Below, piece after piece: positions 18,085-52,516 of a DNA stretch of 64,000 bases. Numbering within the stretch: position 1 is the first letter of the stretch; each line of letters starts with the position of its first letter. The translations under genes and the position numbers were made by a program. Below the pieces are notes generated by a model. That model was not told the DNA's origin. It did no database searches and was given only the letters and a program-made list of their open reading frames with translations. Source of the DNA: an uncultured Hyphomicrobiales bacterium (GTDB lineage Bacteria > Bacteroidota > Ignavibacteria > Kapaibacteriales > UBA2268); contig CAZEMR010000002.1 of the NCBI GenBank assembly GCA_964513465.1, forward strand, positions 57,479 through 121,478, read 5' to 3'.

Positions 18085-18287
18085 GGCGAGCCTCGTTGTA
18101 GGTGTGGGACAAAATATTAAACGAAGTATCAATGCGCCATAGTGATCCGGATTGTTGTGAAGTGGTTGATTTATATCAATATAAAAATAAAATATATATA
18201 AAGCAACAGATATTTTTAATAAAAACGAAGAGATTGCTTCGTATAAGATATTTCGCCGGTCGGCGGGTGTTTTATGCGCCACCTGCC

Positions 18288-18316
18288 AAAAAAAAAGCTC
18301 CGCCATATAGCGGAGC
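18288..18316 (-). terminator. rho-independent terminator for the small minus-strand ORF
   Basis: Perfect 7-bp stem gctccgc/gcggagc with loop catata. On the minus strand it is followed by a T9 run. Confidence 0.65.
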
Positions 18317-35137: not shown

Positions 35138-35506
35138 TCAAAGAGTTTTGAGTACTGCGTCGATTTTCTGTTTCAGGCCATCGGGAGTAAATGGCTTTAC
35201 GACGTAATTATTTATTTTTGCCTTGACCGCCGCCACCACGTCGAATTTTGTGCCGCGAGTGGTGACCATAATAATCGGCAGATGCTGATAGTCCGGAATG
35301 CTCCGTATGCGTTTGACCAGCTCGAGGCCGTCCATTTTTGGCATATTCCAGTCGGTGATAACAAACTCGATGGGATTGCGGGCAAGCTGCTCGAGCGCTT
35401 CCTCGCCGTCGCCGGCTTCGGTGATACGTTCGTGGCCCAGTGCGCGCAGGCTGTTGCCGATAAATCTGCGCACAGTTGGGGAATCGTCAACAACTAGAAA
35501 ATGCAT
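35138..35506 (-). CDS. cheY: single-domain response regulator (CheY-like)
   Basis: VVDDS, DWNMP and VKPF motifs. 122 aa. Confidence 0.8.
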   Translation of the reverse strand: MHFLVVDDSPTVRRFIGNSLRALGHERITEAGDGEEALEQLARNPIEFVITDWNMPKMDGLELVKRIRSIPDYQHLPIIMVTTRGTKFDVVAAVKAKINNYVVKPFTPDGLKQKIDAVLKTL

Positions 35507-35704
35507 TGCGTTTATTTACCTGAATTATATTCACAAGATATTTTCCAATATATATAATATAAGAAATTCCTGAAATTTTGTAGTAAATTAATTATGTAGT
35601 TTACGTTTTTTTCGGGTTTTGATTATATTATAAAGATAGAATTGTCTTCGAAGCGTATTTTTCTTAATTTAAATAAATTTTCATGTAAAAACTCCGGACA
35701 GCCA

Positions 35705-36442
35705 ATGAGAAAATTACTTGTGCTTTTGTTCGCCACGATTCTTTCCGCTAATATCGCCAGCGCTCAGTTTACCCGCGCGGTGGTCTCGCTCACCGGCGAG
35801 GTGATCGACCAGTCTACCCGCAATGCCGCCAAAGTCACCCTTGTGGTGCACGATGCCGAGGGCAAAAAAGTCCGCAAGGTGAAATCTAACGAATCCACCG
35901 GTTATTATTTTATCACCGGGCTTGCTCCGGGCTCGAGCTATACTATCGAATTGCTCTCGGAGGATTATCTGAACGAGAAATATCTGGTGAATATTCCCAA
36001 TACCGACCGCTACGCGGAATTTTCGCGCGATTTTCTGGCAAAGCCCCGAGTCGAAGGCGCAAAAATTAAAATACCGGTGCCGCCGTTCGAGCTGCGCAAG
36101 GCCAGGCTGCGCTTCGGGTCGGAATATTTTCTTGGGGACTATATGAATGTGATGATTGCCAATCCGGATGTAAAATTCTCGATAAGCTGCTATCCCGATT
36201 CGGAGGGCGATCCGGAGATCAACCTGGAGCTGACCGAGATGCGCTGCCGTTCGCTGGAGGAATATTTCGCTTCGGGCGGAGTCGATCCGGCTCGGATTTC
36301 GATTGATCCGCATAAGCAGCCCGATCCGGCGAATCCGCCGCCAACCGACAAGCGCGCCAAGGGCAAGCGTTATATCGGGCCGACATATCTGGTGATCGAA
36401 GAAATCGCCGACGACGGCCGGGGAATGCCCTCGAAAGACTAA
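35705..36442 (+). CDS. OmpA-like domain protein with N-terminal carboxypeptidase-regulatory-like beta-sandwich
   Basis: The internal start MRKLLVLLFATILSANIASAQ gives a signal peptide. The C-terminal portion resembles an OmpA peptidoglycan-binding domain. The gene lies 21 nt upstream of MCP 1. Confidence 0.5.
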   Translation: MRKLLVLLFATILSANIASAQFTRAVVSLTGEVIDQSTRNAAKVTLVVHDAEGKKVRKVKSNESTGYYFITGLAPGSSYTIELLSEDYLNEKYLVNIPNTDRYAEFSRDFLAKPRVEGAKIKIPVPPFELRKARLRFGSEYFLGDYMNVMIANPDVKFSISCYPDSEGDPEINLELTEMRCRSLEEYFASGGVDPARISIDPHKQPDPANPPPTDKRAKGKRYIGPTYLVIEEIADDGRGMPSKD

Positions 36443-36463
36443 TTTTGTAAATATATATTCGGA

Positions 36464-38665
36464 GTGCATAAATTGCGGCTGAACCTGAAATGGAAGATCA
36501 TGATACTGGCGGCGCTGGCAGTGCTGTTGCCGATGGCTGTTATCCTGGTCATTACCGGCGAATTCGAAAAAAACATCGAATCCACCGCCACCAGCGAACT
36601 CAATACGCTCGCACGGCTGAACGTAGCCCAGATCGCGCGGGACGTCCACGGCCTCTGCGGCACATCGAACGACCTTTTGCAGCAGCGGCTCGACCACGGG
36701 CTCGACGTCAGCATCAGCCAGGTCCGGGCGATTGGCAGGCCGCGGCTCCACCCGGCGAATACGCTGATCTGGAATTGCGTGAATCAATATACTCATAATG
36801 CAGACACTCTGCGCCTGCCGCAGATGTTTATTAACGGCAAGCCGGTCGATAAAGTTGGCGGCTTCGATCGGTCCGCTCTGGTGGTCGATCGCGTTACCGA
36901 GCTTACCGGCGCCACCTGCACAATTTTCCAGCGGATGAACGAGCGCGGCGATATGCTCCGCATTGCCACCACGGTAAAAAACGCCAAAGGTAATCGCGCA
37001 ATCGGCACCTATATACCGGCGGTCAATCCCGACGGGCGCCCCAATCCGGTGGTCTCGGCGCTGCTCGAGGGCAAAACATTCCGCGGCGCTGCATATGTTG
37101 TGAACAATCGCTATTTGACGGCATACCGGCCGCTGCTCGACGAAAAGGGCAGCATAATCGGCGCGATTTATGTCGGACTTCCGCTCGAATCGGTCGAATC
37201 GCTCCGCAAAACTATATTGAACACAAAGGTCGGCAAGACCGGCTATGTTTACGTCCTTGGCGCCAGCAACGAGCATCCGGGGCATTATATTATCAGCAAG
37301 GACGGTCTGCGCGACGGTGAGGATATCTACGACGCAACCGACGCCGACGGCAATTATTTTATCCGCGAATTAATCACTGAAACTCAGAAAGCTTCCGCCG
37401 GAGAGGTGATTTTCCATACATATAAATGGAAAAATCCCGGTGAGGATACAGCGCGCGAGAAACTTGTGGCGGCTGTTTATTTCGCACCCTGGGACTGGGT
37501 GATTGGCGCTGGAGTATATAAGGAAGACTATCTGGAGACCTCTGCCCACCTTAGCGACGCTATCGACGATATGCGCTCCGGCCAGATTTATATATATATA
37601 ATTATCGCAATAATTGCCTTAATCGTTGCTTTCGTGGTGGCGCGGCGCATGGCCGGGCCGCTGGAATATGTTGCCGGGCTGGCGCGCGGGATTGCCGATG
37701 GGGATATCGCCGCAGCCGGCGAATCGCTCGAAAATTCGAAATACTCCCGCAGAAACACTCGCGACGAAACCGGCGAATTGATTGAATCTTTCAAAAAAAT
37801 GACGGCTAATCTCAGCTCGCTGCTCAAAGAGGTGCGGCACTCGGGCATTCAGGTGACCACATCGGCCACCGAGATTTCCGCATCGGCGCGCCAGCTCGAA
37901 GCGGCAGTCGCCCAGCAGGCGTCATCGACCCGCCAGGTAAATTCCGCCGGACAGAATATCAGCCGCAAATCCGACGAGTTAGTGGGGGCGGTTCACGAAG
38001 TAGCCGGCGAAGTCGACGAATCGGCTGCGCTCGCCGAATCGGGCGGTGCCAGCCTTTCGGAGATGAAGGAGGCAATCGACCATCTGAGCAGCGCCACGGC
38101 GTCGATTACTTCGAAGCTCTCGGTGGTCAGCGAAAAAGCGAATAAGATTTCAGCGGTAGTAACTACGATTAATAAAATCAGCGACCGCACGAATCTGCTG
38201 TCGCTCAATGCTGCGATCGAGGCCGAAAAAGCCGGCGAATACGGCCGCGGATTCTCGGTGGTGGCGCGCGAAATAAGCCGTCTGGCCGACCAGACCGCCA
38301 TCGCCACTCGCGACATCGAGCAGATGGTGCGCGATATGCAGCGGTCGGTATCCTCGGGCGTGATGGAGATGGACAAATTCGGCGAAGAGGTGCGCCAGGG
38401 CGTTGGCAAGGTCAGCACAATCGGCTCTCAGCTTAATATGATAACCGAGCGGGTGCGATCGATAGGCCCGCGATTCGACGAGCTCGAATCGGGTATGGAG
38501 ACTCAGGCCGAGGGCGCCGGGCAGATAAGCGAGGCAATGAGCCAGCTTGCCGAATCGACCGGCCAGACACGCGAATCGCTTGCCGAATTCAAGAAAGTGA
38601 CGCAGCAGCTCAACGAGGCCGTAGAAATTTTGCGCAATGAAGTATCAAAATTCAAAATAAATTAA
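36464..38665 (+). CDS. methyl-accepting chemotaxis protein (Cache-type periplasmic sensor, HAMP, MA domain)
   Basis: Two TM helices flank a ~330-aa periplasmic domain. The highly conserved signalling hairpin is [37 protein letters not shown]. Confidence 0.85.
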
Positions 38666-38682
38666 CCGGACCGGACATAGAT

Positions 38683-40731
38683 ATGCTCAATAAACTCAGT
38701 ATTGGCGCCAAATTGCTGATTCTCATCCTTGCCAGCGTTTTCGCGATTTTTGCCGGGATGTATATATATCATTATTTCGTTTCGCGCGCGGCTATTATGA
38801 ATATCGTCCACCGCGAATCTCACAAAACCGCACTCGCTACGGTCAACCGTATCGAGGAGATACTTGGCTCGGTCGAGCGCATTGCCGGGAATATGGCCAA
38901 TTATGCTTCCACGGCGGAATTTTCTACCGGCGAAATTCATAAATATCTTACTTCGACAGTTTCTTATAATGATATAATCTTCGGCGCAACAATGGCTTAC
39001 GAGCCGTTTGCGGCCGACAGCACAATCCGCTATTTTGCGCCATATTACTACCGAAAGGACGGCGCGCTTGGCTATGTCGATCTTGCCGATCCGGATTATT
39101 TCTACCCGAAATGGGGCTGGTATAACCGTCCCCGCGAGGAGGGCCGCGCGTTATGGACAGAGCCATACTACGACGAGGGCGCCGGCAATACGGTGATGAC
39201 CACATATTCCGTGCCGATTTATAAAAATACGGACGGGCGGAGGCAATTCGCCGGGGTGGTGACAAATGACGTCTCGCTTGGCTGGCTGCGGCGCTTTTTC
39301 GATTCGATGTCTTCGTATAAATCCAGCTATTTCTTTTTAATATCGAAGGATGGCACATTTATTTCGCATCCGGATTCCAATCTTATAATGAAAGAAACGA
39401 TTTATTCGGTGGCCGAGCGTCTGGGCGACAGCGTGCTTGCCGGGATTGCCAATCGGATGACATCCGGCGCGACCGGGCTGACGGATTACACAAGCAAAAT
39501 CAGCGGAGTCGAGGGATTTATATATTATATGCCGCTGCGCTCGGCGGAGTGGTCGCTGGGTATTATGTTCAGCGACGACGAGGTGATGGCCGATATGATC
39601 GAATTGAACCGCGAGATTATCATAATCGGGATCGTCGGATTGTTGGTATTAATTATTATCATAATATTAATTTCGCGGACAATCGCCCGGCCGCTGCGCT
39701 ATGCCACCAATGCCGCCGAAGAGATTGCCGAAGGCCGTCTCGATTCGGCCGCGCGGCTTACGGATGAATATCTCGATAAATCCGGGTTGAATAAATATAT
39801 AAATAAATCCACCAAAAATGAATCTATCAGATTATTCGCCGCAATCCGCAAAATGGCCGACAATCTGAATTCGCTCATAAGCCAGGTGCAGCGCTCGGGG
39901 TCGCTCGTTTCGAGCTCGACGTCCGAGATTGCGGCCTCGGCGCGCCAGCTTGAGTCCACCGCCGCCGAGCAGGCCGCCTCGACCAAAGAGGTCACCGCCA
40001 CCAGCCGCTCAATCGCCGACACCGCCGATAAACTGGTCGACACCACAGGCGAGGTGGGCGACAACGTCAGCCGCGCCGCTGCCTCGGCCGAAAGCGGCCG
40101 CGCGGACCTTGCCCGGATGAAGCAGACCATGGATTCCCTGAGCGGCGCCACGCGTTCGATCTCGAAAAAGCTCTCTATTATTAACGACAAGGCCGGGAAG
40201 ATTTCGGCGGTGATTACTACAATCAATAATATCAGCGACCAGACCAATCTGCTTTCGCTAAATGCCGCAGTCGAAGCCGAAAAAGCCGGCGAATACGGCA
40301 AGGGCTTCTCGGTCGTCGCGCGCGAGATAAGCCGGCTATCGGAGCAGACCGCCATTGCCACCCAGGACATCGAATACATGGTGCGAGAAATGCAAAGCTC
40401 CGTGCGCACGGGGGTTAACGAAATGGACAGCTTTGCGCGCGAAATCAAAAGCTCTGTGGGCGAGGTTACTACCATCGGCAGCCATCTGGCTGGTATCATC
40501 GATATGGTAAACAGCCTGAAGCCGCAATTCCGAATGCTGGACGAGGGGATCGGCGGCCAGAGCGAGGGCGCCGGCCAGATAAGCGAGGCCATGACCCAGC
40601 TTGCCGAGGCCAGCGAGCAGACCCGGCAGTCGCTCTCGGAATTCAAGCGGGCCACCGAACAGCTCAACGACGTTGTGCTGAGCCTTCAGCAGGAAGTATC
40701 TAAATTCAAAGTAAAAGAGGATGCCCAATAA
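38683..40731 (+). CDS. methyl-accepting chemotaxis protein (dCache-like sensor)
   Basis: Same architecture as MCP 1. Signalling domain [28 protein letters not shown]. Confidence 0.85.
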
Positions 40732-42828
40732 ATGAGAAAATTACGCGGAAGACTCAGAATCGCCCATAAATTGCTGCTGAGCTGCATATTTTTCGCAATC
40801 CCGATCGGGGTGCTGCTGTGGTATGTGGTCGATGGCCACAATCAGCATATTCGCTTTGCCGAAAAGGAGCGCTCCGGCGCAGAAATAATTGCAAAGGCCG
40901 CCCCTGCGATGGAGCTGATTGCCGAATTCGCAATCGATGATTATATCGCCCGGGTCGGCGGCGAACAGGATTATCGCAGCGCCGAATCCGAAAAGCGCAT
41001 CCATAAGGCGCTGGCCGATCTGGAGCATTTTGCGGGTAAATATTCCGAAATTATGGATTTATCCTCCGGACGGCTCGGGGAGATTGGCAAATCGGATATT
41101 CTGCCGGGGAATATTATGAAAAAATGGGATGTATTTCTGCGCGAAAAATCAGATTTGGGCAATGAGGAATTATCCGAAAATTATATGATTTTTTTGCAAA
41201 ATATTAATTCCCTGATCCGGTATATCGGCGATAAATCCAATCTGATACTCGATCCCGATCTGGATTCGTATTATATGATGGATATTTCGCTGCTTGCGAT
41301 GCCCGATCTGACGCGGCGGCTGGCGGAGTTCACGATAAACGCCGCGAATGCCGCAGCCGATACCGCCGGAAATACCGATATTCCGGGATATATATATAAT
41401 GTGGCGGTCAATGATCTTCTGCCTCGGATCGTAAGCGATGCGGAGGTCTCCGTGCGCGAGGATGCCACTTTCCATGGCGATCATCCCGCCCTCGGCGAGG
41501 ATATGGTCAATAAAGCCTCCGAATTCCGGAACAGAATTGAGAATTATCTGGCAAAATGGCACAGCCCCGGCGCGCAGCCGCTCCGATCGCTTGCGGCTGA
41601 TTCGCATCAGTCCTTTTCGCAGATGCGGGAGTTCTGGCTCGTCTCGAATTCCACGCTGATTGATTTATTAAATAAAAGAATTGATTATTATCAAACCAGA
41701 AAATGGACATCGCTGGCGATCAGTCTGGCGGCCGTTGCGTTAGCCGCGATCGTCGTATTTCTGATTGCGCTGGGCATATCCCGGCGCCTGCGGAGCGTTA
41801 CGCGGATAACCAGCGACATCGCAATGGGCAACATCGCCGGTGCAAAGGAAGCGCTCGAAAAATGCCGCAATCGCGGTACCGGAGTGCGGCTCGATTCGCC
41901 CGGTGCGGCCAAAACCCGCGACGAGAGCGTGATATTGCTTCAGGAAATAAATATTATGACCCACAATCTCGATTCGCTGCTCTCGGAGGTGCGCAATACG
42001 GGTATTCGGATGACCAGCTCGGCGACGGAGATTTCGGCATCGGCGCGCCAGCTCGAATCGACAATCACCGAGCAGGCAGGCTCGATTAATCAGATAAATT
42101 CCACCAGCCGCGAGATTGCCGCAAATTCTGGCGATCTTTCCGATACGATGAAGCTATTGCTCGATCAGGCATCCGAGGCTGCGCGCGTATCCCATAGCGG
42201 AGTCGAGGCGCTCGACGAGCTGAACGAAACCATCCACGCGCTGATTGATTCATCCGAGGAAATTGCCGAAAAGCTCAGCTTTATAAGCTCCAGCGCGACG
42301 AATATCGGCGAGGTGATAACGACGATTACAAAGGTAGCCAATCAGACGAATCTGCTGTCGCTCAATGCCGCAATAGAAGCCGAGAAAGCGGGCGAGGCGG
42401 GCGTCGGGTTTGCCGTCGTTGCGCGCGAGATCAGGCGCCTGGCCGACCAGACAGCCGTCGCCACGCTCGACATCGAGGATATGGTGCGTCAGATGGACGC
42501 CGCCATTCGCGAGGGCGCCGCCGCGGTTGATAATAATTCGCGCCAGCGGGACGTTTCTCAGGAAAAGATTGGCAGGATCAGCAGGGAGTTTACTGTGATA
42601 ATCGACCAGACTCGCGAGATTGAACCCAGATTCGGCGAGGTAACCGAGGGCATGAACGCCCAGAGCGAGAGCGCCCTCACGATAAGTGATGCGATGGCAC
42701 GGCTCAACGATGCCGCGCGCCAGACCCGCGAGGCAATCGGCGAATTCAACCAGGTGACCGCTGCGCTGCGCGATTCGTCCCAGAATCTGCAGAAAGAGCT
42801 TGGGCGATTCAGAACGGAGCAGGAGTAA
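40732..42828 (+). CDS. methyl-accepting chemotaxis protein (helical periplasmic sensor)
   Basis: TM, ~290-aa sensor, TM, HAMP, then an MA domain ([28 protein letters not shown]). Starts 1 nt after MCP 2. Confidence 0.85.
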
Positions 42829-42834
42829 ATATAT

Positions 42835-43299
42835 ATGCTGCTGCTGCTTATGAATATCGGCGATGATTTTTATGCGATCGACATCGACCGTATAGTCGAG
42901 ATCGTGCCATTCGTCAACCTCAAAAAAATCCCGCAGATGCCGCGCTATATCGGGGGTATCCTGAATTATCGCGGACGTCTGACTCCGGTGGTCGATATAT
43001 CCGAATTGCTCGCCGGGCGGCCCACCCCGCCGCTGTTCAGCTCGCGGATAATCCTCGTCAGGTATCGCGGCGTCGATGGCGAAAATCATACGCTGGGCCT
43101 GCTCGCCGGGGCGGTGACCGAGACGATAAATGTTAATCCCGAGCAGATTCAAAGCTCGGGCATAGAGGTAGAAAACGCGCCGTTTCTGAAGGATATAATA
43201 ATCGACGAGCGGGGGATGATCCAGCGAATCGATATTGACAAAACATTGCCAAAAAATATTCACGAAGCCTTGTTCAGATCCGGTGAGGGCGATGCGTAA
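42835..43299 (+). CDS. cheW: chemotaxis coupling protein CheW
   Basis: 154-aa CheW-like domain (FYAIDIDRIVEIVP...GGILNYRGRLTPVVD). Confidence 0.8.
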   Translation: MLLLLMNIGDDFYAIDIDRIVEIVPFVNLKKIPQMPRYIGGILNYRGRLTPVVDISELLAGRPTPPLFSSRIILVRYRGVDGENHTLGLLAGAVTETINVNPEQIQSSGIEVENAPFLKDIIIDERGMIQRIDIDKTLPKNIHEALFRSGEGDA

Positions 43300-44536
43300 T
43301 GCCCAGCTCAAATATCTGATCGAGCGCCGCCTGGGGTTTGATATCGAGACGCTTGGCGCGAGCTACGTCGAAAACGCCGTCCGCCGTCTGAGCGAGAGCT
43401 CGGGCGCGCAGGAAATCGAGGATTATGTTACGAGGGTTGCTGGCTCAACTGAAATGATGGCCGCGCTCATCGAGGAAATTGTCGTACCCGAGACATGGTT
43501 TGTCCGCGACAGCGGGGCATTCGATTTTTTGAAAAATTTTGCAAAAAAAATTCATCCGGAAAAGGGCGGGCCGCTGCGGATACTCTCTGCGCCATGCTCC
43601 ACCGGCGAGGAGCCCTATTCGATTGCGATAGCTTTGCATGAAGCCGGCCTCGGCGCGGAGGATTACTCAATCGAGGCCGTCGATATCAGCTATTGTGCTA
43701 TCGACAAAGCCCGCGCCGCCGAATACACGAAGAATTCCATGCGCGGCGCAAGCAATGAATTCATAGAAAAATATTTTGATCGCGCCGGGGATAAATATAT
43801 ATTAAAAAAGGGATTCAGGCGGAATGTGGAATTTCGGCAGGCCAATATTCTCGATCCGGGATTTGCGGGATCGCGCGCCGAATTCGACATCATATTCTGC
43901 CGCAATCTGATGATATATCTGCGCCCGGATTCGCGGCTGCGGCTGTTCTCGGCGGTCGATCGGCTGCTGCGGCCCGGGGGTGCCCTTTTTACGGGGCATT
44001 CGGAGATAATGTTTTTCAACCGGGCGGGTTATTCTCCATCTGGCGCCGCGCGTTCGTTTGCTTTGATTAAAAATGAAGAGCATGATGCGCCGGCTGCGCA
44101 GGAGAAAAAATTCCCCGATACGAAAAAATATTTGAAAAAAATTCGTGAAAATGCCCGGAAAGATAGAAAACGGCCAATAATTGCTCCGAAGTTCGAAATT
44201 CCGGAGCGGTCAAAAGCACCGGCCGCGGAGGATGCGATATCCGCTAAGTCCGTGCGCCGGCTGGCGGATATGGGGCGCTACGACGAGGCGCTAAGCGGCT
44301 GCGAGCAATTGATCGCCGAGCGCTCGCCCCAAGCGGAACTCTATTATTTGGCGGGACTTATCAACGAAGCGCTGGGCAATTCCGCCCGCGCGGCCGAAAG
44401 CTACAACAAGGCGCTCTACCTCGATCCGGAGCATTACGAAACGCTGATAAATTTATGCTTATTATCCGAAAAAATGGGTGACCTCCGCAAGGCCGAATTG
44501 CTCCGGCGGCGCGCGCAAAAGATTGATTTTAAATAA
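43292..44536 (+). CDS. cheR: chemotaxis protein methyltransferase CheR with C-terminal TPR repeats (FrzF-like)
   Basis: The start is taken at the in-frame ATG 43292, overlapping the cheW stop. The CheR SAM-binding core is LRILSAPCSTGEEPYSIAIAL. C-terminal TPR (AELYYLAGLINEALGNSARAAESYNKALYLDPEHYETLINL). Confidence 0.8.
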   Translation: MRNAQLKYLIERRLGFDIETLGASYVENAVRRLSESSGAQEIEDYVTRVAGSTEMMAALIEEIVVPETWFVRDSGAFDFLKNFAKKIHPEKGGPLRILSAPCSTGEEPYSIAIALHEAGLGAEDYSIEAVDISYCAIDKARAAEYTKNSMRGASNEFIEKYFDRAGDKYILKKGFRRNVEFRQANILDPGFAGSRAEFDIIFCRNLMIYLRPDSRLRLFSAVDRLLRPGGALFTGHSEIMFFNRAGYSPSGAARSFALIKNEEHDAPAAQEKKFPDTKKYLKKIRENARKDRKRPIIAPKFEIPERSKAPAAEDAISAKSVRRLADMGRYDEALSGCEQLIAERSPQAELYYLAGLINEALGNSARAAESYNKALYLDPEHYETLINLCLLSEKMGDLRKAELLRRRAQKIDFK

Positions 44537-44550
44537 ATTAATATATATAT

Positions 44551-45201
44551 ATGGAAAACAAAAAAGAAGAACGGTGCTGGAAGACGATCGGCGTATTGGG
44601 CGACGGAAGCTGCGAGCAGCTCGATAAATTCGTCCACTGCCGCCACTGCCCGGTATATTCGACCGCGGGCCGGAATATTCTCGACCGCCCGGCGCCGGAT
44701 AGCGTCGTCGAAGAATGGACGCTCAACATAGCCAGCGAAAAAGAAACCGAGCCGCCGGATACCATCCCGCTCGTGATTTTCCGGATTTATGGCGACTGGC
44801 TGGCGCTGCGGGCATCGGCATTCCAGGAGATGATCGACGTTCGCGAGGTGCACTCGGTGCCATTCCGCACCAACCGCTTTTTCCGCGGACTGGTCAACGT
44901 CAACGGCGAGCTTCTGCTCTGCCTTTCGATGGCCGCGCTGCTGGATATAATGCAGTCCGGCGAGGATAAATTCTCGCGGATGATCGTCGTCCGAAGCGGC
45001 GCCGACCGCTATGTTTTTGCAGTTCACGAAATGCCCGGCGTCTTGAAAATTCCTACGGAATCGATCGGCAAAACGCCATCGACTCTGGCGAAATCGCCGA
45101 TGGCCTTCTCGCGAGGAATATTCGAATTCGACGGCAAAAAAGTCGGCATGATCGACGAAGCATTCTTTTTTGATTCGATCGCAAGGAGGTTAGTCTGGTG
45201 A
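44551..45201 (+). CDS. CheW-like protein with N-terminal Cys-rich (putative zinc-binding) extension
   Basis: N-terminus CWKTIGVLGDGSCEQLDKFVHCRHCP (C-x10-C-x8-C-x2-C), then a CheW domain (VIFRIYGDWLALRASAFQEMIDV...GLVNVNGELLLCLSM). Confidence 0.7.
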   Translation: MENKKEERCWKTIGVLGDGSCEQLDKFVHCRHCPVYSTAGRNILDRPAPDSVVEEWTLNIASEKETEPPDTIPLVIFRIYGDWLALRASAFQEMIDVREVHSVPFRTNRFFRGLVNVNGELLLCLSMAALLDIMQSGEDKFSRMIVVRSGADRYVFAVHEMPGVLKIPTESIGKTPSTLAKSPMAFSRGIFEFDGKKVGMIDEAFFFDSIARRLVW

Positions 45202-48200
45202 GCGAAAATCAGAATTCGGCCGATATGTTCATGCTGGAGCTGTTCCACACGGAGGTGGAGAACCACGCGCGGACGCTGGAGGAGGGCCTTGTGCGGGTCG
45301 AGGACGATCAGTCGGCGTCGGCGATCGAGCCATTGATGCGTGCGGCGCATTCGATAAAGGGCGCGGCGCGGATAGTTGGTCTGGACGATGCTGTAACATT
45401 GGCCCACGCGATGGAGGATGTTCTCACCGCTGCGCAATCGGGCAAGCTGCGGCTCGGGCAGGCGATAATCGACGAATTGCTCGGCGGGAATGATATTTTT
45501 ATCGATACGATTGACCAGCCAGTTGGCGAAATCGAATCATTTTTTAAATCGAATAAAGAAAAAATCGAGCAAATTTCGAATAATCTGAAAAAATTGATGT
45601 CCGGCGAGAAGCCTGCGTCACAGACCGAATCACAGCCAAAGCCGGCTCCCGAGCCAAAACCCGCACCCCCGAAAAAAGAAGAGCCTCCACAAAAAAATGA
45701 GCCAAAACAGGAATCCGGCGGGGCGGATATGTTTATGCTGGAGCTGTTCCACACGGAGGTGGAGAACCACGCGCGGACGCTGGAGGAGGGCCTTGTGCGG
45801 GTCGAGGACGATCAGTCGGCGTCGGCGATCGAGCCATTGATGCGTGCGGCGCATTCGATAAAGGGCGCGGCGCGGATAGTTGGTCTGGACGATGCTGTAA
45901 CATTGGCCCACGCGATGGAGGATGTTCTCACCGCTGCGCAATCGGGCAAGCTGCGGCTCGGGCAGGACGACATCGATCTGCTGCTCGATTGCAATGATAT
46001 ATTTATAAAAATAATCGATATTTCGCCCGGGGAAATCGAGGGCTATCTTAAGTCGCAGAAAGGGGATATCGAAAATCTGGCCGGAGAGCTGCGCAAAGTA
46101 TTATCAGGCGAACCGCGCGCCGTTAAACCGGTGGAGGCCCCGCCTGAAGAAGAAATTACTCTCGAAAAATTCAGAGAAATTCTAGCGAAAAATTCTTCGC
46201 TGCTTGAGGTCGGACTAATCGAATCCGAGGGCGCGCAGTCGGAGGAATCGCTTCGTGAGCTGGCCGGATTATGCGCAGAAATACGGGAATTATCAGGGAA
46301 ATTCGATTTCCGGACGCTCGGGGAAATGCTCGGCGGGATGGAAAAGGCGCTAAATGCCGCGGCTCGCGGCGAAATCGCACTTGCCGCAGCCGAGATAAAT
46401 TTATTGCTGCGCTCTAATGACGTACTCGCCAGCATCGCCCAGATGGAAGCCTCGGAAATCGAAGATATTATCATCAGCGAATCGGGGATAATCGAGGAAT
46501 TCACCGGCGAATTGCGCGAAATTCCGCAAAAGCGGCCGCCGCGAAAACTCGAATCCGCCGAGCTGCGCGACCCCGCGGAAGCCAGCGACGAAGAGCTTGC
46601 CGATTTCCGCGACCAGGTGGCCGACAGCGCTCTGGTGCTTGAGCGCGGAATAGCCACTGAGGAAGGCATTTCCGCTGAATTTGCGCCAATGATGCGCGCG
46701 GCGTGGTCGATACGCGATGCCGCGCGGAATGTTGGATTCACCAGCATCACACGGCTGGCGGCGGCCATGCAGAGTATGTTCGGGGCTGCGTTCCACGGCC
46801 GGATAGAGCTCTCGGGCGAGCAAATCGAATGGCTTCGGCGGGGAGCCGGAGCGCTCCGCGAGATGATTAGCGCCGGGGCGATGGAACTGCTTGATATATA
46901 TATAAATAAGACGGATGCGATCGACGATCTCGTCCGCCTGATAAGCGATTTCCTGGGCGAGGAGATGTTGCTGCCACCCGCTCCTAAGACAGAAAAGCCG
47001 AAGGAGCTGCCGGCACAGCCCGCCAAAAAAGATTCGCCGCCAAAGCCGGCCGCGCCGGAGCCTCAGGCGCCTCGGCAGGACGACAGCTTCGTTCGAGTGC
47101 TTTCGCAGAATTTAAATAAATTGATGGGGCTGTCGGGCGAGACGCTTGTCAAAGTTAAATCAATTAAGCCATTTTCTACGAATTTACTCGAAATAAAAAA
47201 TTTATTATTCGAATTTAATTCCCTTCACGAAAATATTGTCCAGAATCTTGAGGACAACCCCGCGCTGCCCGAATCGTGGCGGCTTAAGCTGGGCGAATCA
47301 TCCGAAAAGCTCGGCGATATCCGGCAGTTGCTACTCGGGCATATCGATGATTTCGAGATGTTTTCGCGGCGCCTCGAAAACGTCGCAGAGCAGCTATATT
47401 CCGAAGCCGTCGCCACCCGGATGAAGCCATTCGCCGAGGGATTGCACGGCTTCAACCGGATGGTGCGCGATGTGGCCAAAAAGCTCGGCAAGCGGGTGAA
47501 TCTGCGCATCGAGGGCGAATCCACACGGGTCGATCGCGATATACTCGAAAAGCTCGAAGCGCCGCTGAATCATCTGCTGCGCAATGCGGTCGATCACGGA
47601 ATCGAGACCATCGAAGATCGTGAGCGGAAGGGCAAACCCGCCGCAGGAACGCTGACGCTCAGCGCGCGGCACCGCTCGGGAATGCTTATTATCTCGCTTA
47701 AAGACGACGGCCGCGGAATCGATCCCGCGAAGCTGCGCCGCAAGGTAGTCGAAAAGGGCTATGTCAGCGAGGAGATGGCCGCAAAATTATCCACGCCGGA
47801 ATTGATGGATTTCCTCTTTCTGCCGGGATTCTCGACGGCGGAGAAGGTCACGGAAATCTCCGGGCGGGGCGTGGGACTCGACGTCGTATTCTCGATGGTA
47901 AGCGAGGTCGGGGGCACCGTCCGCGCTGATTCGGCGCCGGACGAAGGCACCACATTTTTGCTCGAATTGCCGCTGACGCTCAGCATATTGCGGACGCTGC
48001 AGGTCGGAATCGCCGGCGAGTCGTACGCATTGCCGCTCTCGCGGATCGACCGGATTTTCGATATAAAGGAAGACAACCTTAAAACAATCGAGGATCGGCA
48101 GTATTGCGTATTCGACGGCGAAAACATGGGCATCGTCGATGCCCGCAAGGTGCTCCGGCTCGGCGAGCGCGAGGAATTTTCCGAAAAAATTCATCTGGTA

Positions 48201-48827
48201 ATAATCAGCGACCGGCTGAACCGCTACGGCGTGGTGGTCGATCAGTTCCTTGGCGAGAAAGACCTCGTCGTCATCCCGCTCGACAAAAAGCTGGGCAAGA
48301 TCCCCAACATCAGCTCCGGCGCGATAATGGAGGACGGCTCGATCGTGCTCATACTCGACATCGACGACATGGTGCGCTCGGTGGACGATTTGCTTAATCG
48401 CGAAAAATTAAATATAAAGGAACGCGGCCGCGCAAAAATCGCTCAATTGCGCAAGCGGATTCTCGTTACCGATGATTCGCTTACCGTCCGCGAGGTCGAG
48501 CGCAAGCTATTGGAAAACGCCGGTTATGACGTAACTCTGGCGGTCGATGGCGCCGACGGCTGGAACAAGCTTAGCGCCGGTGAATTCGATCTGGTGATCA
48601 GCGACGTCGATATGCCGCGGATGAACGGCATCGAATTTGTTTCGAAAATCCGGAGCGAAGTCAGATACCGCGATTTGCCGGTAATGATTGTATCATATAA
48701 AGATCGGGAAGAGGACAAGCTGCGCGGACTTGATGCGGGCGCAAATTATTACCTGACCAAAAGCAGCTTTCACGACGAAACGCTGCTCGAGGCGGTGCGC
48801 GACCTGATCGGGGACGCCCGCGAATGA
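45198..48827 (+). CDS. cheA: hybrid chemosensory histidine kinase CheA-CheY (ChpA/FrzE-like) with two identical Hpt domains, a degenerate third Hpt-like domain, HATPase, CheW-like and C-terminal receiver domain
   Basis: Hpt motif AAHSIKGAARIVG occurs twice, and AAWSIRDAARNVG occurs once. CheA-type HATPase (NAVDHGIE...GRGVGLDVV). CheW-like region. REC (ILVTDDS...ISDVDMP...TKS). Pro/Lys-rich linkers. Confidence 0.85.
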   Translation: MSENQNSADMFMLELFHTEVENHARTLEEGLVRVEDDQSASAIEPLMRAAHSIKGAARIVGLDDAVTLAHAMEDVLTAAQSGKLRLGQAIIDELLGGNDIFIDTIDQPVGEIESFFKSNKEKIEQISNNLKKLMSGEKPASQTESQPKPAPEPKPAPPKKEEPPQKNEPKQESGGADMFMLELFHTEVENHARTLEEGLVRVEDDQSASAIEPLMRAAHSIKGAARIVGLDDAVTLAHAMEDVLTAAQSGKLRLGQDDIDLLLDCNDIFIKIIDISPGEIEGYLKSQKGDIENLAGELRKVLSGEPRAVKPVEAPPEEEITLEKFREILAKNSSLLEVGLIESEGAQSEESLRELAGLCAEIRELSGKFDFRTLGEMLGGMEKALNAAARGEIALAAAEINLLLRSNDVLASIAQMEASEIEDIIISESGIIEEFTGELREIPQKRPPRKLESAELRDPAEASDEELADFRDQVADSALVLERGIATEEGISAEFAPMMRAAWSIRDAARNVGFTSITRLAAAMQSMFGAAFHGRIELSGEQIEWLRRGAGALREMISAGAMELLDIYINKTDAIDDLVRLISDFLGEEMLLPPAPKTEKPKELPAQPAKKDSPPKPAAPEPQAPRQDDSFVRVLSQNLNKLMGLSGETLVKVKSIKPFSTNLLEIKNLLFEFNSLHENIVQNLEDNPALPESWRLKLGESSEKLGDIRQLLLGHIDDFEMFSRRLENVAEQLYSEAVATRMKPFAEGLHGFNRMVRDVAKKLGKRVNLRIEGESTRVDRDILEKLEAPLNHLLRNAVDHGIETIEDRERKGKPAAGTLTLSARHRSGMLIISLKDDGRGIDPAKLRRKVVEKGYVSEEMAAKLSTPELMDFLFLPGFSTAEKVTEISGRGVGLDVVFSMVSEVGGTVRADSAPDEGTTFLLELPLTLSILRTLQVGIAGESYALPLSRIDRIFDIKEDNLKTIEDRQYCVFDGENMGIVDARKVLRLGEREEFSEKIHLVIISDRLNRYGVVVDQFLGEKDLVVIPLDKKLGKIPNISSGAIMEDGSIVLILDIDDMVRSVDDLLNREKLNIKERGRAKIAQLRKRILVTDDSLTVREVERKLLENAGYDVTLAVDGADGWNKLSAGEFDLVISDVDMPRMNGIEFVSKIRSEVRYRDLPVMIVSYKDREEDKLRGLDAGANYYLTKSSFHDETLLEAVRDLIGDARE
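45221..45966 (+). repeat. tandem direct duplication inside cheA: two ~245-bp copies (about 45221-45462 and 45725-45966, period 504 bp) with a 232-bp perfectly identical core
   Basis: Nucleotide-identical block atgctggagctgttccacacgg...ctgcggctcgggcagg in both copies. The reverse-frame ORFs 45024..45437 and 45630..45941 in the track share an identical 69-aa peptide, confirming nucleotide identity. Confidence 0.85.
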
Positions 48828-49861
48828 GAATAGGGATCGTCAATGACGTATCGCTGGCGGTAGAGGTGCTGAGGCGCACTATCCACCAGCAGCCCGGACT
48901 CGAAATCGCATGGGTGGCATTCGACGGCGAGGAAGCCGTCCGCAAAAATGCCGACGACAAGGCCGATCTGATACTTATGGATCTCTTGATGCCCGTGATG
49001 GACGGAGTCGAGGCCACCCGGCGGATTATGACCGAAAACCCCACGGCGATTCTGGTGGTGACATCGACAGTAACCGGCAATTCCGGAAAGGTATTCAGCG
49101 CAATGGGTTATGGCGCGCTGGATGCGGTTTGCACCCCCGTATTCGGTCCGGGCGGGAAGATAGAAGGCGCCCGCGATCTGTTGAAAAAAATCGCCACGAT
49201 CGGGAAATTAATTGGCAAAGAAAATATTGAATTAGTAAATCATAATTCGGAAAATGATAATTGCAAAGGCGAACTCCCGCCGATGGTGGCTATCGGCTCA
49301 TCGACCGGCGGGCCGCGTGCGCTGGCGGATATACTCACATGGCTGCCAGGGGATTTTCCTGCGGCGGTGGTGGTAGTCCAGCATGTGGATTCGCAGTTCG
49401 CGCGGGGGCTGGCCGACTGGCTCGACGATCAGACCTCGCTCCGGGTCAAGGTCATCCGCGAGGGCGACCACGCCGAAAAGGGGTATATATATATTGCGGA
49501 AACGAACGACCATGTGGTGCTCGACCGCGACCGGACTTTTTATTATACCCCCGAGCCGATGAATTATCATTACCGGCCATCGGTGAATACATTTTTCAAA
49601 AGTCTTAACGAAAACTGGCCGCGGCGGGATGTGGCGGTAGTGCTCACCGGTATGGGCGACGACGGCGCAAAGGGTTTGCTCGCGCTGCGCGAGGCCGGAT
49701 GGCACACAATCGCACAGGACAAGGAGACATCGGTGGTTTACGGAATGCCCGGTGCGGCGGCCCGGCTGAATGCGGCCATCGAGATATTGCCCGTCGAAAA
49801 AATTGCAGAATCAATTATTAAAAATATTAATAAAAAGGCTAATACAAATGCAGCAAAATGA
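48824..49861 (+). CDS. cheB: chemotaxis response regulator protein-glutamate methylesterase CheB
   Basis: REC domain (LILMDLLMPVMDG) plus methylesterase domain (VAIGSSTGGPRAL, VVVQHVDSQF, DGAKGLLALREAGWHTIAQD). 4-nt overlap with cheA. Confidence 0.85.
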   Translation: MRIGIVNDVSLAVEVLRRTIHQQPGLEIAWVAFDGEEAVRKNADDKADLILMDLLMPVMDGVEATRRIMTENPTAILVVTSTVTGNSGKVFSAMGYGALDAVCTPVFGPGGKIEGARDLLKKIATIGKLIGKENIELVNHNSENDNCKGELPPMVAIGSSTGGPRALADILTWLPGDFPAAVVVVQHVDSQFARGLADWLDDQTSLRVKVIREGDHAEKGYIYIAETNDHVVLDRDRTFYYTPEPMNYHYRPSVNTFFKSLNENWPRRDVAVVLTGMGDDGAKGLLALREAGWHTIAQDKETSVVYGMPGAAARLNAAIEILPVEKIAESIIKNINKKANTNAAK

Positions 49862-51047
49862 ATCAACCCAATTGGATACGAATATTACCGAATATAAAAT
49901 CAAGGTGCTGCTGGTCGATGACCAGGCTATAGTCGGCGAGCAGGTGCGGCGGATGCTCCAGCCCGAGGAGGACATCGAATTCCATTTCTGTCAGGAACCC
50001 TCGAAGGCCGTTCAGACCGCCGCAGAGCTGAATCCCACGGTAATCCTGCAGGATCTGGTGATGCCGGATATCGATGGTCTGACGCTGGTCAAATTCTTCC
50101 GCGCGCACCCACAGCTCAAGGATGTGCCGATGATCGTGCTTTCGTCGAAGGAGGAGGCCGTCACCAAGGCGGACTCGTTTGCCACCGGCGCGAATGATTA
50201 TCTGGTCAAACTGCCCGACCGCATCGAGCTGGTTGCGCGAATTCGTTACCACTCAAAGGGTTATATACATTTACTCCAGCGCAACGAGGCCGAGGACAAA
50301 TTGCGCAAAAGCCAGAAGGCGCTGCTCTCGGAGCTTGCCAAGGCCGGCGAATATTGCGTTTCGCTGCTGCCCGAGGAGATCGACGAAGGCGACATCCGCA
50401 CCCACTGGCGATTTGTGCCATCCGAGCAGCTCGGCGGCGATTCATTCGGCTACCACTGGGTTGATGATGACCACTTCGCGATGTATCTGCTCGACGTATG
50501 CGGGCATGGCGTCGGGTCGGCATTGCTCTCGGTTTCGGGCCTGAACGCAATGCGGATGCAGTCGCTGCCGAACACGGACTTCCGCAGCCCGGAGAGCGTC
50601 TGCAACGGGCTGAATGCGGCATTCCAGATGGAGGCCCACAACGACATGTATTTCACGCTATGGTATGGCGTTTATAATAAAAATTCGCGAGAGATGAAGT
50701 TTGCCACCGCAGGCCATCCGCCGGCGCTGCTCTACGACGCGGCCGGAAATTGCAAACAGCTTATGAACGAGAATTTCATAATCGGCGGGTTGCCCGAATT
50801 TCCGTATAGCGAGAGCTCGACCGAGGTTGCGCCGGGCTCGAGGATGTATATATATTCCGACGGGGTTTACGAAATCACGCGGCCTGACGGCTCGATGTGG
50901 GACCTCGACGGTCTGGAGGATTACATGCGCGAGCCGCACGATGGCTTCGAATCGGAGATCGAGGCGCTTCACCGGCATGTGCAGTCGATGAGCGGCCTCG
51001 AGATTCTGGACGACGATTTCTCGATGCTTAAGATCATATTCGATTGA
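49848..51047 (+). CDS. response regulator fused to PP2C/SpoIIE-type serine phosphatase (RsbU/RssB-like output module)
   Basis: The internal start MQQNEST overlaps the cheB end by 14 nt. REC domain (VLLVDDQ...LQDLVMPDIDG...YLVKL). PPM domain (GGDSFGYHW...LLDVCGHGVGSALLS...TAGHPPALL...YIYSDGVYE). Confidence 0.8.
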   Translation: MQQNESTQLDTNITEYKIKVLLVDDQAIVGEQVRRMLQPEEDIEFHFCQEPSKAVQTAAELNPTVILQDLVMPDIDGLTLVKFFRAHPQLKDVPMIVLSSKEEAVTKADSFATGANDYLVKLPDRIELVARIRYHSKGYIHLLQRNEAEDKLRKSQKALLSELAKAGEYCVSLLPEEIDEGDIRTHWRFVPSEQLGGDSFGYHWVDDDHFAMYLLDVCGHGVGSALLSVSGLNAMRMQSLPNTDFRSPESVCNGLNAAFQMEAHNDMYFTLWYGVYNKNSREMKFATAGHPPALLYDAAGNCKQLMNENFIIGGLPEFPYSESSTEVAPGSRMYIYSDGVYEITRPDGSMWDLDGLEDYMREPHDGFESEIEALHRHVQSMSGLEILDDDFSMLKIIFD

Positions 51048-52516
51048 TTTTCAATTTCATAAAGATTAATTCAATGAAAATTAGATATTTTTCGCTGATT
51101 GCTCTGCTGCTGGTAATTTCCCTGAATTCCTGCGAGCAGACCACTATCGAGCGCCCTGGGCCGAAGAATATTATCATCATGATCGCCGACGGCGCGGGCT
51201 ATGACCATATTCAGATCGCAAATTTATATGAAGAGGGCAAAACCGAAGCCCAGCCTTATGAGCAATTCCCCGTGCGGTATTTCGTGAGCACCTATCCGGC
51301 GCTCGCGGGCGATTATTATGATGCGCTGGAAAATCATGCAAATTCCGGATATAGTCCATACGAGACCTGGCATGATTTCGACTGGCGGCGGCATGGATTC
51401 ACCGGCTCGGGCGCGGCATCGACGGCAATGGCCACAGGAATGAAGACCTATAACGGCGCGATTGGCGTCAATATCACCGGACAGCCGCTGCTGAATATCA
51501 CAGAGCGCGCCAAGGATATGGGCAAATCCGCAGGGGTGGTGAGCTCGGTGCAGTTTGCTCACGCAACCGCGGCCGCATTCAGCGTACACAACACGGACCG
51601 CGATAATTATCCCGAAATCGCCCGCGATATGCTGATCAAAAGCCGGCTGGACGTGATCATGGGCTGCGGCCATCCCTATTATGATAATGATGGTAAAATC
51701 CGTCAGAATGCGCTAAGTTTTAAATACGTCGGCGACAGCCTGTTATGGTCGGAAATCCACGCCGGAAAAGCCCGAGTACGGCGCGGCAGCGGTATTGAAG
51801 TCGATCTGGCCGACGTCAACGGCGACGGCCAGCCGGATGCATGGGAGCTGATCGATAATATCGAGGAATTCGAGAATCTCGCCCAGGGCGAGACCCCGCT
51901 GCGGGCGCTTGGAGTGGCGCCCAATATATATACATTGCAACAAGCGCGCGGCGATTCGATTGCCGGAATGATGAATGCCTACGATTATCCGTTTATCGAA
52001 AAAATGCCCTCGCTCGAAACGATGACCGCGGGCGCGCTGAACGTGCTGGATAATAATAATTCGGGATTTTTCCTGCTGATCGAGGGCGGAGCGATCGACT
52101 GGGCGTCGCACAGCAACCAGAAAGGACGCCTGATCGAAGAGATGAGCGAATTCAACAAAGCTGTCCGCCGGGTGATCGACTGGATAGAGACAAGCAGCGG
52201 ATGGGACGAAACATTGCTGATCGTAACCGCCGACCACGAAACGGGATACGTCGCCGGCCCGGACTCCGGGGGCGATCCGCCGCAGTGGTTCCCTCCGCTT
52301 AATAACGGCAGGGGGAATATGCCCGGATTCGATTTCCACAGCACAGATCACACGAATGCGCTTGTGCCGCTTTACGCAAAGGGCAAGGGCAGCGAGCTGT
52401 TCGCGGAATATGCCGACGAATACGATCCGGTGCGCGGCGAATTTATTACCAATAGCGAGATCGGCCAGCTTTTGTTCCGGCTGTTCGGACGCGGCAAGGC
52501 GTTGAGGGATAAGTGA
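51044..52516 (+). CDS. alkaline phosphatase (PhoA family) lipoprotein
   Basis: IIIMIADGAGYDHI (the second serine nucleophile region follows). DWASHSN and TADHETG metal-binding motifs. Lipobox LLVISLNSC. Confidence 0.85.
   Translation: MIFNFIKINSMKIRYFSLIALLLVISLNSCEQTTIERPGPKNIIIMIADGAGYDHIQIANLYEEGKTEAQPYEQFPVRYFVSTYPALAGDYYDALENHANSGYSPYETWHDFDWRRHGFTGSGAASTAMATGMKTYNGAIGVNITGQPLLNITERAKDMGKSAGVVSSVQFAHATAAAFSVHNTDRDNYPEIARDMLIKSRLDVIMGCGHPYYDNDGKIRQNALSFKYVGDSLLWSEIHAGKARVRRGSGIEVDLADVNGDGQPDAWELIDNIEEFENLAQGETPLRALGVAPNIYTLQQARGDSIAGMMNAYDYPFIEKMPSLETMTAGALNVLDNNNSGFFLLIEGGAIDWASHSNQKGRLIEEMSEFNKAVRRVIDWIETSSGWDETLLIVTADHETGYVAGPDSGGDPPQWFPPLNNGRGNMPGFDFHSTDHTNALVPLYAKGKGSELFAEYADEYDPVRGEFITNSEIGQLLFRLFGRGKALRDK

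Follow-up and report, generated by a model that had tools for sequence, protein, structure and literature searches.

A Wsp-type chemosensory gene cluster with a PP2C-family phosphatase domain in the output position

What does a chemosensory pathway control when its genes follow the order of the Pseudomonas wsp operon, but its last gene encodes a predicted Ser/Thr phosphatase rather than a diguanylate cyclase? This question is raised by a gene cluster at positions 35705-51047 of a 64-kb stretch of contig CAZEMR010000002.1, referred to below as the window. Textbooks present the Wsp pathway as a way in which Pseudomonas comes to form biofilms, and it is mostly regarded as a cyclic di-GMP (c-di-GMP) device of Beta- and Gammaproteobacteria. 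The reading that we favor, with a probability of about 65%, is that the cluster encodes a Wsp-type pathway of the 'alternative cellular function' (ACF) category with a swapped output enzyme, a PP2C phosphatase that feeds a STAS-type partner switch.

The genes named in a first-pass annotation of the window, which had been made from the DNA sequence without database searches, were all present at the coordinates given there and had strong Pfam matches, apart from the weakly matching OmpA-like protein. Following a first operon gene for an OmpA-like secreted protein (35705-36442, plus strand), the plus strand encodes three methyl-accepting chemotaxis proteins (MCPs). MCP1 (36464-38665) combines a Cache_3-Cache_2 periplasmic sensor with a HAMP and a signaling domain (Pfam E 3e-86 and 3e-35), MCP2 (38683-40731) has a dCache_1 or MCP-like PDC sensor according to Pfam, and the periplasmic domain of MCP3 (40732-42828) had no Pfam match, MCPsignal being the sole match of this protein. 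These genes are followed, on the same strand, by those for a coupling protein in the position of WspB (CheW1, 42835-43299; Pfam CheW E 2e-26), a position that is conserved among related loci; a WspC-like CheR methyltransferase with C-terminal TPR (43292-44536; Pfam CheR E 5e-43); a second, WspD-like coupling protein with an N-terminal four-Cys motif, in which the Pfam CheW match covers only aa 74-203 (CheW2, 44551-45201); and a WspE-like hybrid CheA of 1209 aa, for which Pfam reported three histidine phosphotransfer (Hpt) domains, HATPase_c, CheW, and, at the C-terminus, a receiver (REC) domain (45198-48827). A CheB methylesterase with REC occupies the position of WspF (48824-49861; Pfam E 3e-58; NCBIfam PRK12555, 442 bits with a cutoff of 342), and the last gene encodes a 399-aa output regulator composed of REC and a SpoIIE/PP2C domain (49848-51047; Pfam SpoIIE E 8e-39, plus REC). 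The start codon giving 399 aa agreed with NCBI protein P0118 and with the length of the family.

Counted from the OmpA-like gene onward, nine junctions lead to the REC-PP2C gene; five are gaps (21, 17, 0, 6, and 14 nt) and four are overlaps (8, 4, 4, and 14 nt), the last of which joins cheB and the REC-PP2C gene. These distances are short, with gaps of up to 21 nt, and the cheY gene, which had been included in the translational coupling originally described, was uncoupled.

The output regulator distinguishes this cluster from canonical Wsp systems. In phmmer searches against the PDB, its aa 15-224, which encompass the receiver and the subsequent helix, matched WspR from P. aeruginosa (3BRE, E 7e-53) and P. 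syringae (3I5A, E 2e-52). Asp69 aligned with position 70 of the 3BRE chain, an Asp that serves as the phospho-acceptor of WspR. From approximately residue 180 onward, where WspR has its GGDEF domain, the protein consists of a SpoIIE-family PP2C domain, and Pfam yielded no GGDEF match in this regulator. In a 39-member alignment, receiver residues D24, D25, D69, S99, and K121 were invariant, as were the PP2C metal ligands D198, D216, D338, D389, and D390. An AlphaFold2 model (pLDDT 86) placed REC at residues 18-120, a single helix of 48 residues at 125-172, and PP2C at 183-398. Foldseek searches with this model returned P. aeruginosa RssB (REC-linker-PP2C) as the top match and WspR, for the N-terminal half, as the next. 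The PP2C domain by itself matched the C-domain of RssB, SiaA, RsbX, SpoIIE, and the RsbU domain of Rv1364c, all of which originate from partner-switch circuits. The assignment of the protein to the partner-switch type of phosphatases (RsbU/SpoIIE/RssB/SiaA) was upheld, with catalytic Asp residues that are all intact; judged from these residues, the phosphatase domain is complete and looks active.

Proteins with this architecture are abundant. At E ≤ 1e-30, the REC-PP2C family comprised at least 7,988 clusters at 90% identity, and the top 120 clusters, from several phyla, each had a length of 397-414 aa and 61-65% full-length identity to the window protein, except for the exact match and one relative at 84%. 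It has been proposed that coiled-coil-linked receiver, PAS, GAF, or HAMP domains can be exchanged among PPM phosphatases, GGDEF cyclases, and kinases via crossing helical linkers (Baral et al., PMC12143880). The arrangement of receiver, stalk, and PP2C fits this exchangeable-linker model.

Conservation of the cluster was investigated by searching 185,579 species-representative GTDB genomes with the CheA sequence, which yielded 80 loci (L001-L080) with 38-58% identity in the best-matching segment; the window proteins were then mapped onto the open reading frames (ORFs) of these loci to read gene order. The recurring order was MCP(s), CheW, CheR-TPR, Cys-motif CheW, CheA-REC, CheB, and REC-X, in loci from Syntrophia/Smithella, Desulfobacterales, Maridesulfovibrio, Ignavibacteria, Lentisphaerae, Verrucomicrobia, Planctomycetes, environmental Chlamydiae, Cyanobacteria, and Gammaproteobacteria. 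The window cluster had its nearest counterparts in Syntrophia, Desulfobacterales, Lentisphaerae, and Chlamydiae. All five core genes were found in 57 of the 80 independent loci, a recurrence far beyond chance; core genes were missing in some of the others probably because many contigs are short and truncate the cluster.

The gene that follows CheB differed among these loci. REC-PP2C was the commonest output among the relatives retrieved (37/80) and, together with the overlap with cheB, this conserved position assigned the REC-PP2C gene to the transcription unit of the cluster itself. Gammaproteobacterial loci had REC-GGDEF (canonical WspR) in the output position, and cyanobacterial loci a cyclase or a HisKA-HATPase kinase. 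In a neighbor-joining tree of receiver and stalk, calculated without support values, output types formed clades, consistent with a small number of domain swaps. Eight loci of the Desulfobacterales type (L005, L013, L016, L021, L023, L033, L051, L054) had two output regulators side by side behind CheB, the first a REC-class III nucleotide cyclase and the second REC-PP2C. Wsp-type clusters ending in REC-PP2C were also observed in environmental Chlamydiae (Parachlamydia and Chlamydiales metagenome-assembled genomes (MAGs); L029, L040, L074), of which L029 and L040 branched apart from the main PP2C clade in the receiver tree and L074 was outside the tree. The closest relative of the window, represented by two loci from the same JGI sample (L086 and L091), had 55-84% amino-acid identity and was syntenic throughout; the synteny extended to cheY with its divergent orientation, the two OmpA-like genes, and the alkaline phosphatase and hem genes that are discussed below.

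The cluster has CheR-TPR and a CheA-REC hybrid, and the last of its conserved genes encodes a multidomain response regulator; in architecture, it conformed to the non-flagellar ACF type that had been proposed for it. CheR-TPR marks clusters of the ACF class (PMC3447774), and all three features are regarded as ACF hallmarks (PMC3447774; 10.1101/2022.05.07.491037). The survey by Muñoz-Martínez et al. (2012, PMC3447774) lists clusters in which CheR-TPR adjoins a response regulator that joins REC to a family-2C Ser/Thr phosphatase domain, and it describes these regulators as matching ACF architectures of Wuichet and Zhulin (2010). No experimental, functional, or structural work on Wsp-type REC-PP2C proteins was found in the open-access literature searched. 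In its architecture, the cluster departed from the F class: CheY is encoded divergently, CheA carries a REC domain, and no flagellar genes were found among the ORFs scanned in the window. Among the Frz, Chp, and Wsp systems that had all been named as possible models, Wsp was closest, based on gene order and on the WspR-type receiver and stalk, and an assignment to Frz or Chp was rejected on these same two features.

CheA was found to have two intact Hpt domains, with His51 and His219, and a direct repeat of 285 nt (45218-45502 and 45722-46006; 94% identical, spaced 504 nt) that covers Hpt1. From this repeat, the two intact domains evidently arose by a recent tandem duplication of 285 nt. At least one further Hpt-like bundle, near aa 500, is degenerate and has Trp in place of the phospho-His, so that the 'multiple Hpt domains' of the initial description hold for two intact copies but not for the further, degenerate copy or copies.

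The signaling domains of the three MCPs and of their relatives are equal in length and align without gaps. A gap-free alignment of the MCP1 signaling domain with TM1143, a 44H receptor, at first suggested the 44H class. This class was rejected on counting the arm from hairpin tip to C-terminus, whose 141 aa correspond to 20 heptads and, as a length estimate, to the 40H class, which is also the class reported for WspA (PMC11253619). Among loci that included the receptor region, a Cache_3-Cache_2 MCP accompanied the PP2C output in 23 of 30 cases, the GGDEF output in 0 of 11, and the kinase output in 0 of 9. Weak homologues of the MCP3 sensor occurred in four Ignavibacteria-type loci (L025, L031, L035, L064).

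The N-terminus of CheW2 contains the pattern C-x11-C-x8-C-x2-C (Cys9, 21, 30, and 33; nt 44575-44649), with CW..IG..GD.SC..L....HC(R/K)(N/H)C as the consensus of the motif. All four cysteines were present in each of the 70 loci that matched a query with this region, including gammaproteobacterial loci with REC-GGDEF, i.e., with a canonical Wsp-like composition. The domain was common to 868 representative proteins, in most of which it was N-terminal and the protein 215-250 aa long; a few copies were located inside longer proteins, which are possibly fusions. Pfam had no match over this region, and no description of the cysteine motif of CheW2/WspD was found in the open-access literature searched. 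This region resembles a metal-binding or redox domain. An AlphaFold model of CheW2, based on an alignment of six sequences, had a pLDDT of 37-58 at the N-terminus and was uninformative on the fold of this domain. Homologues with 73% and 36% identity to CheW2 are named 'chemotaxis-related protein WspD' by JGI. At one locus (L093, 3854-4786, from a 5.46-Mb genome), a gene for an Rce1-like CPBP intramembrane protease is inserted between those for CheR and the WspD-like CheW.

The observed genes and their order, together with a receiver of the WspR type, catalytic and phospho-acceptor residues that are intact, and an output gene that keeps its position, lead us to infer the following pathway. The three transmembrane MCPs would form arrays with WspB-like CheW1, WspD-like CheW2 with its Cys4 domain, and the WspE-like hybrid CheA, and would be subject to methylation-based adaptation by the WspC-like CheR-TPR and WspF-like CheB. 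CheA~P would transfer its phosphate to Asp69 of REC-PP2C, whose receiver and stalk are orthologues of the corresponding parts of WspR, a diguanylate cyclase, and whose stalk leads into an intact RsbU/SpoIIE-family Ser/Thr phosphatase in place of GGDEF. Ordering of the stalk, or dimerization, driven by phosphorylation could then switch on the phosphatase. The activated enzyme would strip the serine phosphate from a STAS-domain protein, encoded outside the operon, and this partner switch would redirect a sigma factor or another STAS-controlled effector.

Analogy with the phosphatase family, together with a single locus, makes a STAS-type substrate likely. In that metagenome-derived locus (L087), the operon is opened by a gene for a single-domain STAS protein of 110 aa and continues with MCP, MCP, CheW, CheR, CheW, CheA, CheB, and REC-SpoIIE. 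This STAS gene is the sole direct contextual support for a STAS substrate; a scan of 38 ORFs located upstream of the first MCP recovered only the STAS of L087 itself. Downstream of the PP2C gene, an RsbW-like HATPase_c_2 gene was found in two relatives.

The following points weigh against this reading. The operon in the window contains no STAS or anti-sigma kinase gene. No STAS gene was detected within approximately 10 kb of cheA at any of the 80 loci with a custom hidden Markov model, which was biased to the subfamily of STAS-kinases. A conserved partner was also not found downstream of the PP2C gene, where 74 ORFs from approximately 28 loci were compared with Pfam; among the 25 most frequent families, each with matches in two or more of these ORFs, PAD_porph occurred in five Ignavibacteria-type loci and HATPase_c_2 in the two relatives already mentioned. 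CheA has other possible phospho-acceptors in its own REC domain, CheB, the divergent CheY, and a nearby REC-HDOD protein. Finally, the Cache-type ligand-binding domains of the receptors may indicate a small molecule as stimulus, whereas Pseudomonas Wsp senses stress at the surface or envelope. The PAD_porph gene in the five loci (L025, L027, L031, L035, L064) encodes a protein of approximately 670 aa, similar to peptidyl-arginine or agmatine deiminases, and is the next gene after that for REC-PP2C; in L090, too, a PAD_porph gene was found, near a STAS-kinase homologue.

If the partner of the phosphatase were to be sought in the window, a nearby gene would be a candidate. A 775-aa fusion of STAS with a TCAD9/APH-like kinase (54253-56580, minus strand; Pfam STAS E 6e-13, TCAD9 E 1e-50) is the only STAS-domain protein encoded in the 64 kb, 3.2 kb downstream of the cluster. 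Its Ser54 aligned with the phospho-serine of SpoIIAA, and its STAS domain shared 37% identity (E 3e-19) and the motif YISS(A/V)G with the operon-borne STAS of L087. The conserved serine suggests that the fusion may be a self-contained kinase-STAS switch. In an alternative to a partner located elsewhere, the kinase would phosphorylate the serine of its own STAS domain and the chemosensory pathway would reverse this modification by means of REC-PP2C. Retention of the neighborhood in the closest relative (L091) is in line with this scheme, but common descent predicts synteny of the whole region, so that the adjacency is not evidence of functional coupling. The gene is transcribed from the opposite strand and is embedded in a heme-biosynthesis operon of the order hemC-hemB-X-hemL, in which it takes the place of X. 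A gene of this type was absent within 10 kb of each of the 80 che loci, and homologues in five other contexts (L081/82, L083/84, L085, L088/89, L090) had no che or PP2C neighbors. Proximity of the cluster to a STAS-kinase gene, as pointed out in the first-pass annotation, was therefore not observed outside the closest relative in the contexts and flanks compared, and direct action of REC-PP2C on this fusion is considered unlikely, although it is the alternative that survives best. The STAS-TCAD9 family, with 111 matches from Bacteroidota, Armatimonadota, Sumerlaeota, and Deltaproteobacteria, showed a conserved architecture, a length of approximately 780 aa, and variable neighbors.

A second alternative, possibly as an additional function, is conventional motility chemotaxis, in which CheA phosphorylates the divergently encoded CheY to act on a flagellar motor and REC-PP2C serves as a side branch or takes up phosphate as a sink. 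This CheY (35138-35506, minus strand; 122 aa; Pfam Response_reg E 6e-30) is a single-domain REC protein with the canonical motifs DWNMP and YVVKPF. CheY was its best NCBIfam match, at a score of 118 bits that remained below the 189-bit equivalog cutoff. The gene was initially counted as a member of the cluster, but it lies outside the operon: it is uncoupled, on the minus strand, and separated from the OmpA-like gene by an AT-rich divergent intergenic spacer of 198 nt (35507-35704). It heads a minus-strand string that continues with a PorE/CHU_0125-like OmpA-PD40 gene, a REC-HDOD gene (32076-33275), NUDIX, and PRAI. CheY was encoded at the same position in the closest relative (L086; 80% identity) but not in the other 80 loci. 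Flagella and chemotaxis genes have been reported for a related Kapabacteria MAG (PMC7509429), and a flagellin gene was found on a related Bacteroidota contig, but no flagellar genes were found among the ORFs scanned in the window. Since the CheR-TPR, CheA-REC, and multidomain terminal regulator are ACF hallmarks, a role in motility was judged to be improbable, and the membership of the divergent CheY in the pathway uncertain. At a Smithella locus (L004, 10012-11784, minus strand), a REC-HDOD gene immediately follows REC-PP2C; REC-HDOD proteins may be an additional phospho-acceptor in these pathways.

The first-pass annotation had further linked the cluster to gliding or adhesion dependent on the type IX secretion system (T9SS). 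The premise was correct: six window proteins have a Por_Secre_tail domain (628-3741, 3834-4610, 10589-12178, and 14618-16783; 16852-18306 and 58694-61456, both minus strand), one of them with an arylsulfotransferase domain and one large protein with Ig-like repeats. Regulation of T9SS-dependent gliding, adhesion, or cell-envelope behavior would also agree with the surface and envelope cues to which Pseudomonas Wsp responds, and with the two PorE/CHU_0125-like genes that flank the divergent promoter. L086, the closest relative, retains both genes, and they are missing from the other 80 loci. The first of these, for a PD40 beta-propeller protein with an OmpA domain (33329-35119, minus strand), scored below the family cutoff. 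The second, the first gene of the che operon, encodes a protein with a signal peptide seen in its sequence and with CarboxypepD_reg and OmpA_C matches of 24.8 and 20.8 bits, both below gathering; its NCBIfam PorE match (E 1e-12) was partial and confined to the C-terminal part of PorE, and the protein is 62% identical in L086. Scores of the PorE matches were thus far below family cutoffs, and no gld/spr gliding genes or adhesion genes were linked to the cluster. The report of flagella and chemotaxis genes in a related Kapabacteria MAG further weakens the gliding proposal. Syntrophia, Desulfobacterales, Lentisphaerae, and Chlamydiae, the lineages with the most similar clusters, are not known to use T9SS, so that the conserved function of the pathway cannot be T9SS-specific. 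A T9SS-related role therefore appears quite improbable; like the proposed link to the STAS-kinase, it is not supported.

The least probable alternative, that REC-PP2C is an RssB-like adaptor or pseudo-phosphatase whose phosphorylated form captures a target, for example a sigma factor, and hands it over without dephosphorylation, draws on RssB proteins as best full-length structural and NCBIfam matches but was rejected in view of the invariant metal-binding aspartates in all 39 family members, a full-length PP2C domain (E. coli RssB is truncated and inactive; PMC12143880), and an NCBIfam RssB score of 92 bits vs. a cutoff of 700. A Wsp-type pathway with an active PP2C phosphatase that feeds a partner switch thus remains the preferred reading.

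Some features of the locus bear on its expression and history. The best sigma-70-like match of the scanned region was located in the divergent spacer (35530-35558, plus strand); this promoter candidate, TTCACA-17-TATAAT, agrees with the consensus at 11 of 12 positions and is a consensus match only. At the other end of the operon, a gene for a secreted alkaline phosphatase lipoprotein (51074-52516, plus strand; Pfam Alk_phosphatase E 2e-49) follows the PP2C gene after a gap of 26 nt, in which no terminator-like site was found, and is possibly co-transcribed. Its adjacency was kept only in the closest relative (L091), and it is a lineage-specific addition that may extend the operon. The G+C content of the che operon (53-56%, positions 36000-52000) differed from the 43-51% over most of the upstream half of the window, and the proteins of the operon were closest to those of Syntrophia/Smithella, not to those of Ignavibacteria. 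This combination hints at horizontal acquisition of the che operon.

Clusters of the ACF type with REC-PP2C are widespread and already catalogued in surveys, and much of the present work on the window is careful annotation. What the locus and its 80 relatives add is that the same Wsp machine, fitted with outputs that can be interchanged, is encountered in anaerobic Thermodesulfobacteriota, Ignavibacteria/Kapabacteria, Lentisphaerae, Planctomycetes, environmental Chlamydiae, and Cyanobacteria. If its PP2C form indeed feeds a partner switch, adaptive sensing by chemoreceptors would control the activity of sigma factors or STAS effectors in many uncultured lineages. The interchangeable outputs also represent a natural test of the proposed exchange of sensor modules (PMC12143880). 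Of most interest for further work are the substrate of the phosphatase, the modular outputs, and the invariant Cys4 N-domain of the WspD-type coupling protein.

These three elements can be combined in a wider scheme, which we put forward tentatively and with much less confidence than the reading of the locus itself. In this scheme, the Wsp core (MCP and WspB to WspF) would be a portable cassette for sensing and adaptation, and the WspR-type receiver and stalk would have been fused repeatedly to PP2C, GGDEF, class III cyclase, and histidine kinase domains. The PP2C form might then be a major route from chemoreceptor arrays to Ser/Thr partner switches, with a substrate that acts in trans and could include STAS-TCAD9 kinases, and the Cys4 N-domain of WspD-type proteins might supply every Wsp-type system, that of Pseudomonas included, with a metal or redox input.

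Comparison with characterized systems defines where this cluster stands. It differs from Frz and Pil-Chp systems in its receptors, which are transmembrane proteins with periplasmic Cache domains rather than cytoplasmic FrzCD-type receptors or PilJ, and in its CheA, where no more than two Hpt domains, products of a recent duplication, are intact, as opposed to the many Hpt/Xpt domains of ChpA; no pil genes were found in the window. A link between chemosensory genes and a serine phosphatase of the partner-switch type is shared with F7 'stage 1' clusters (Shewanella Che1, Vibrio cluster III). Those clusters carry genes for STAS proteins and serine phosphatases in cis, including Shewanella Che1 with CrsR/CrsA and RpoS (PMC7184735, PMC9855816). 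They differ from the window cluster in having CheD, Aer2-type receptors, and CheY, in lacking CheR-TPR and hybrid CheA, and in the STAS antagonists encoded in cis, of which the window cluster has none.

Among regulators, the same succession of receiver, helical linker, and SpoIIE-family PP2C is known from RssB/HsbR of P. aeruginosa, CrsR of Shewanella, RsbY of B. cereus, and SypE of Vibrio; the best full-length structural match of the window protein was P. aeruginosa RssB (3F7A/3EQ2), and its catalytic residues are likewise intact. In contrast to these proteins, the window protein has neither a fused or adjacent anti-sigma kinase nor an adjacent STAS partner, its receiver is of the WspR type, and its CheA is encoded in the same operon, whereas the known regulators are served by an Hpt relay or an orphan kinase. 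The REC-PP2C proteins encoded beside CheR-TPR in the survey of Muñoz-Martínez et al. (PMC3447774) have the same context, for which that survey gives architectures only.

The closest counterpart is Pseudomonas Wsp itself, which shares the order of MCP, CheW, CheR-TPR, CheW, hybrid CheA-REC, CheB, and response regulator (wspABCDEFR), the two CheW paralogues (WspB, WspD), CheR-TPR (WspC), and CheA-REC (WspE), a receptor signaling domain of 40H length by estimate, as in WspA, and a terminal regulator with the WspR-type receiver and stalk. The window cluster differs from it in having three receptors, with Cache-type or unmatched sensors, instead of the single WspA; a CheA with duplicated Hpt; an additional OmpA-like first gene and a trailing alkaline phosphatase gene; a host represented by a MAG of Kapabacteria (Bacteroidota/Chlorobi group); and, above all, an output domain that is PP2C and not GGDEF, so that c-di-GMP is not made directly.

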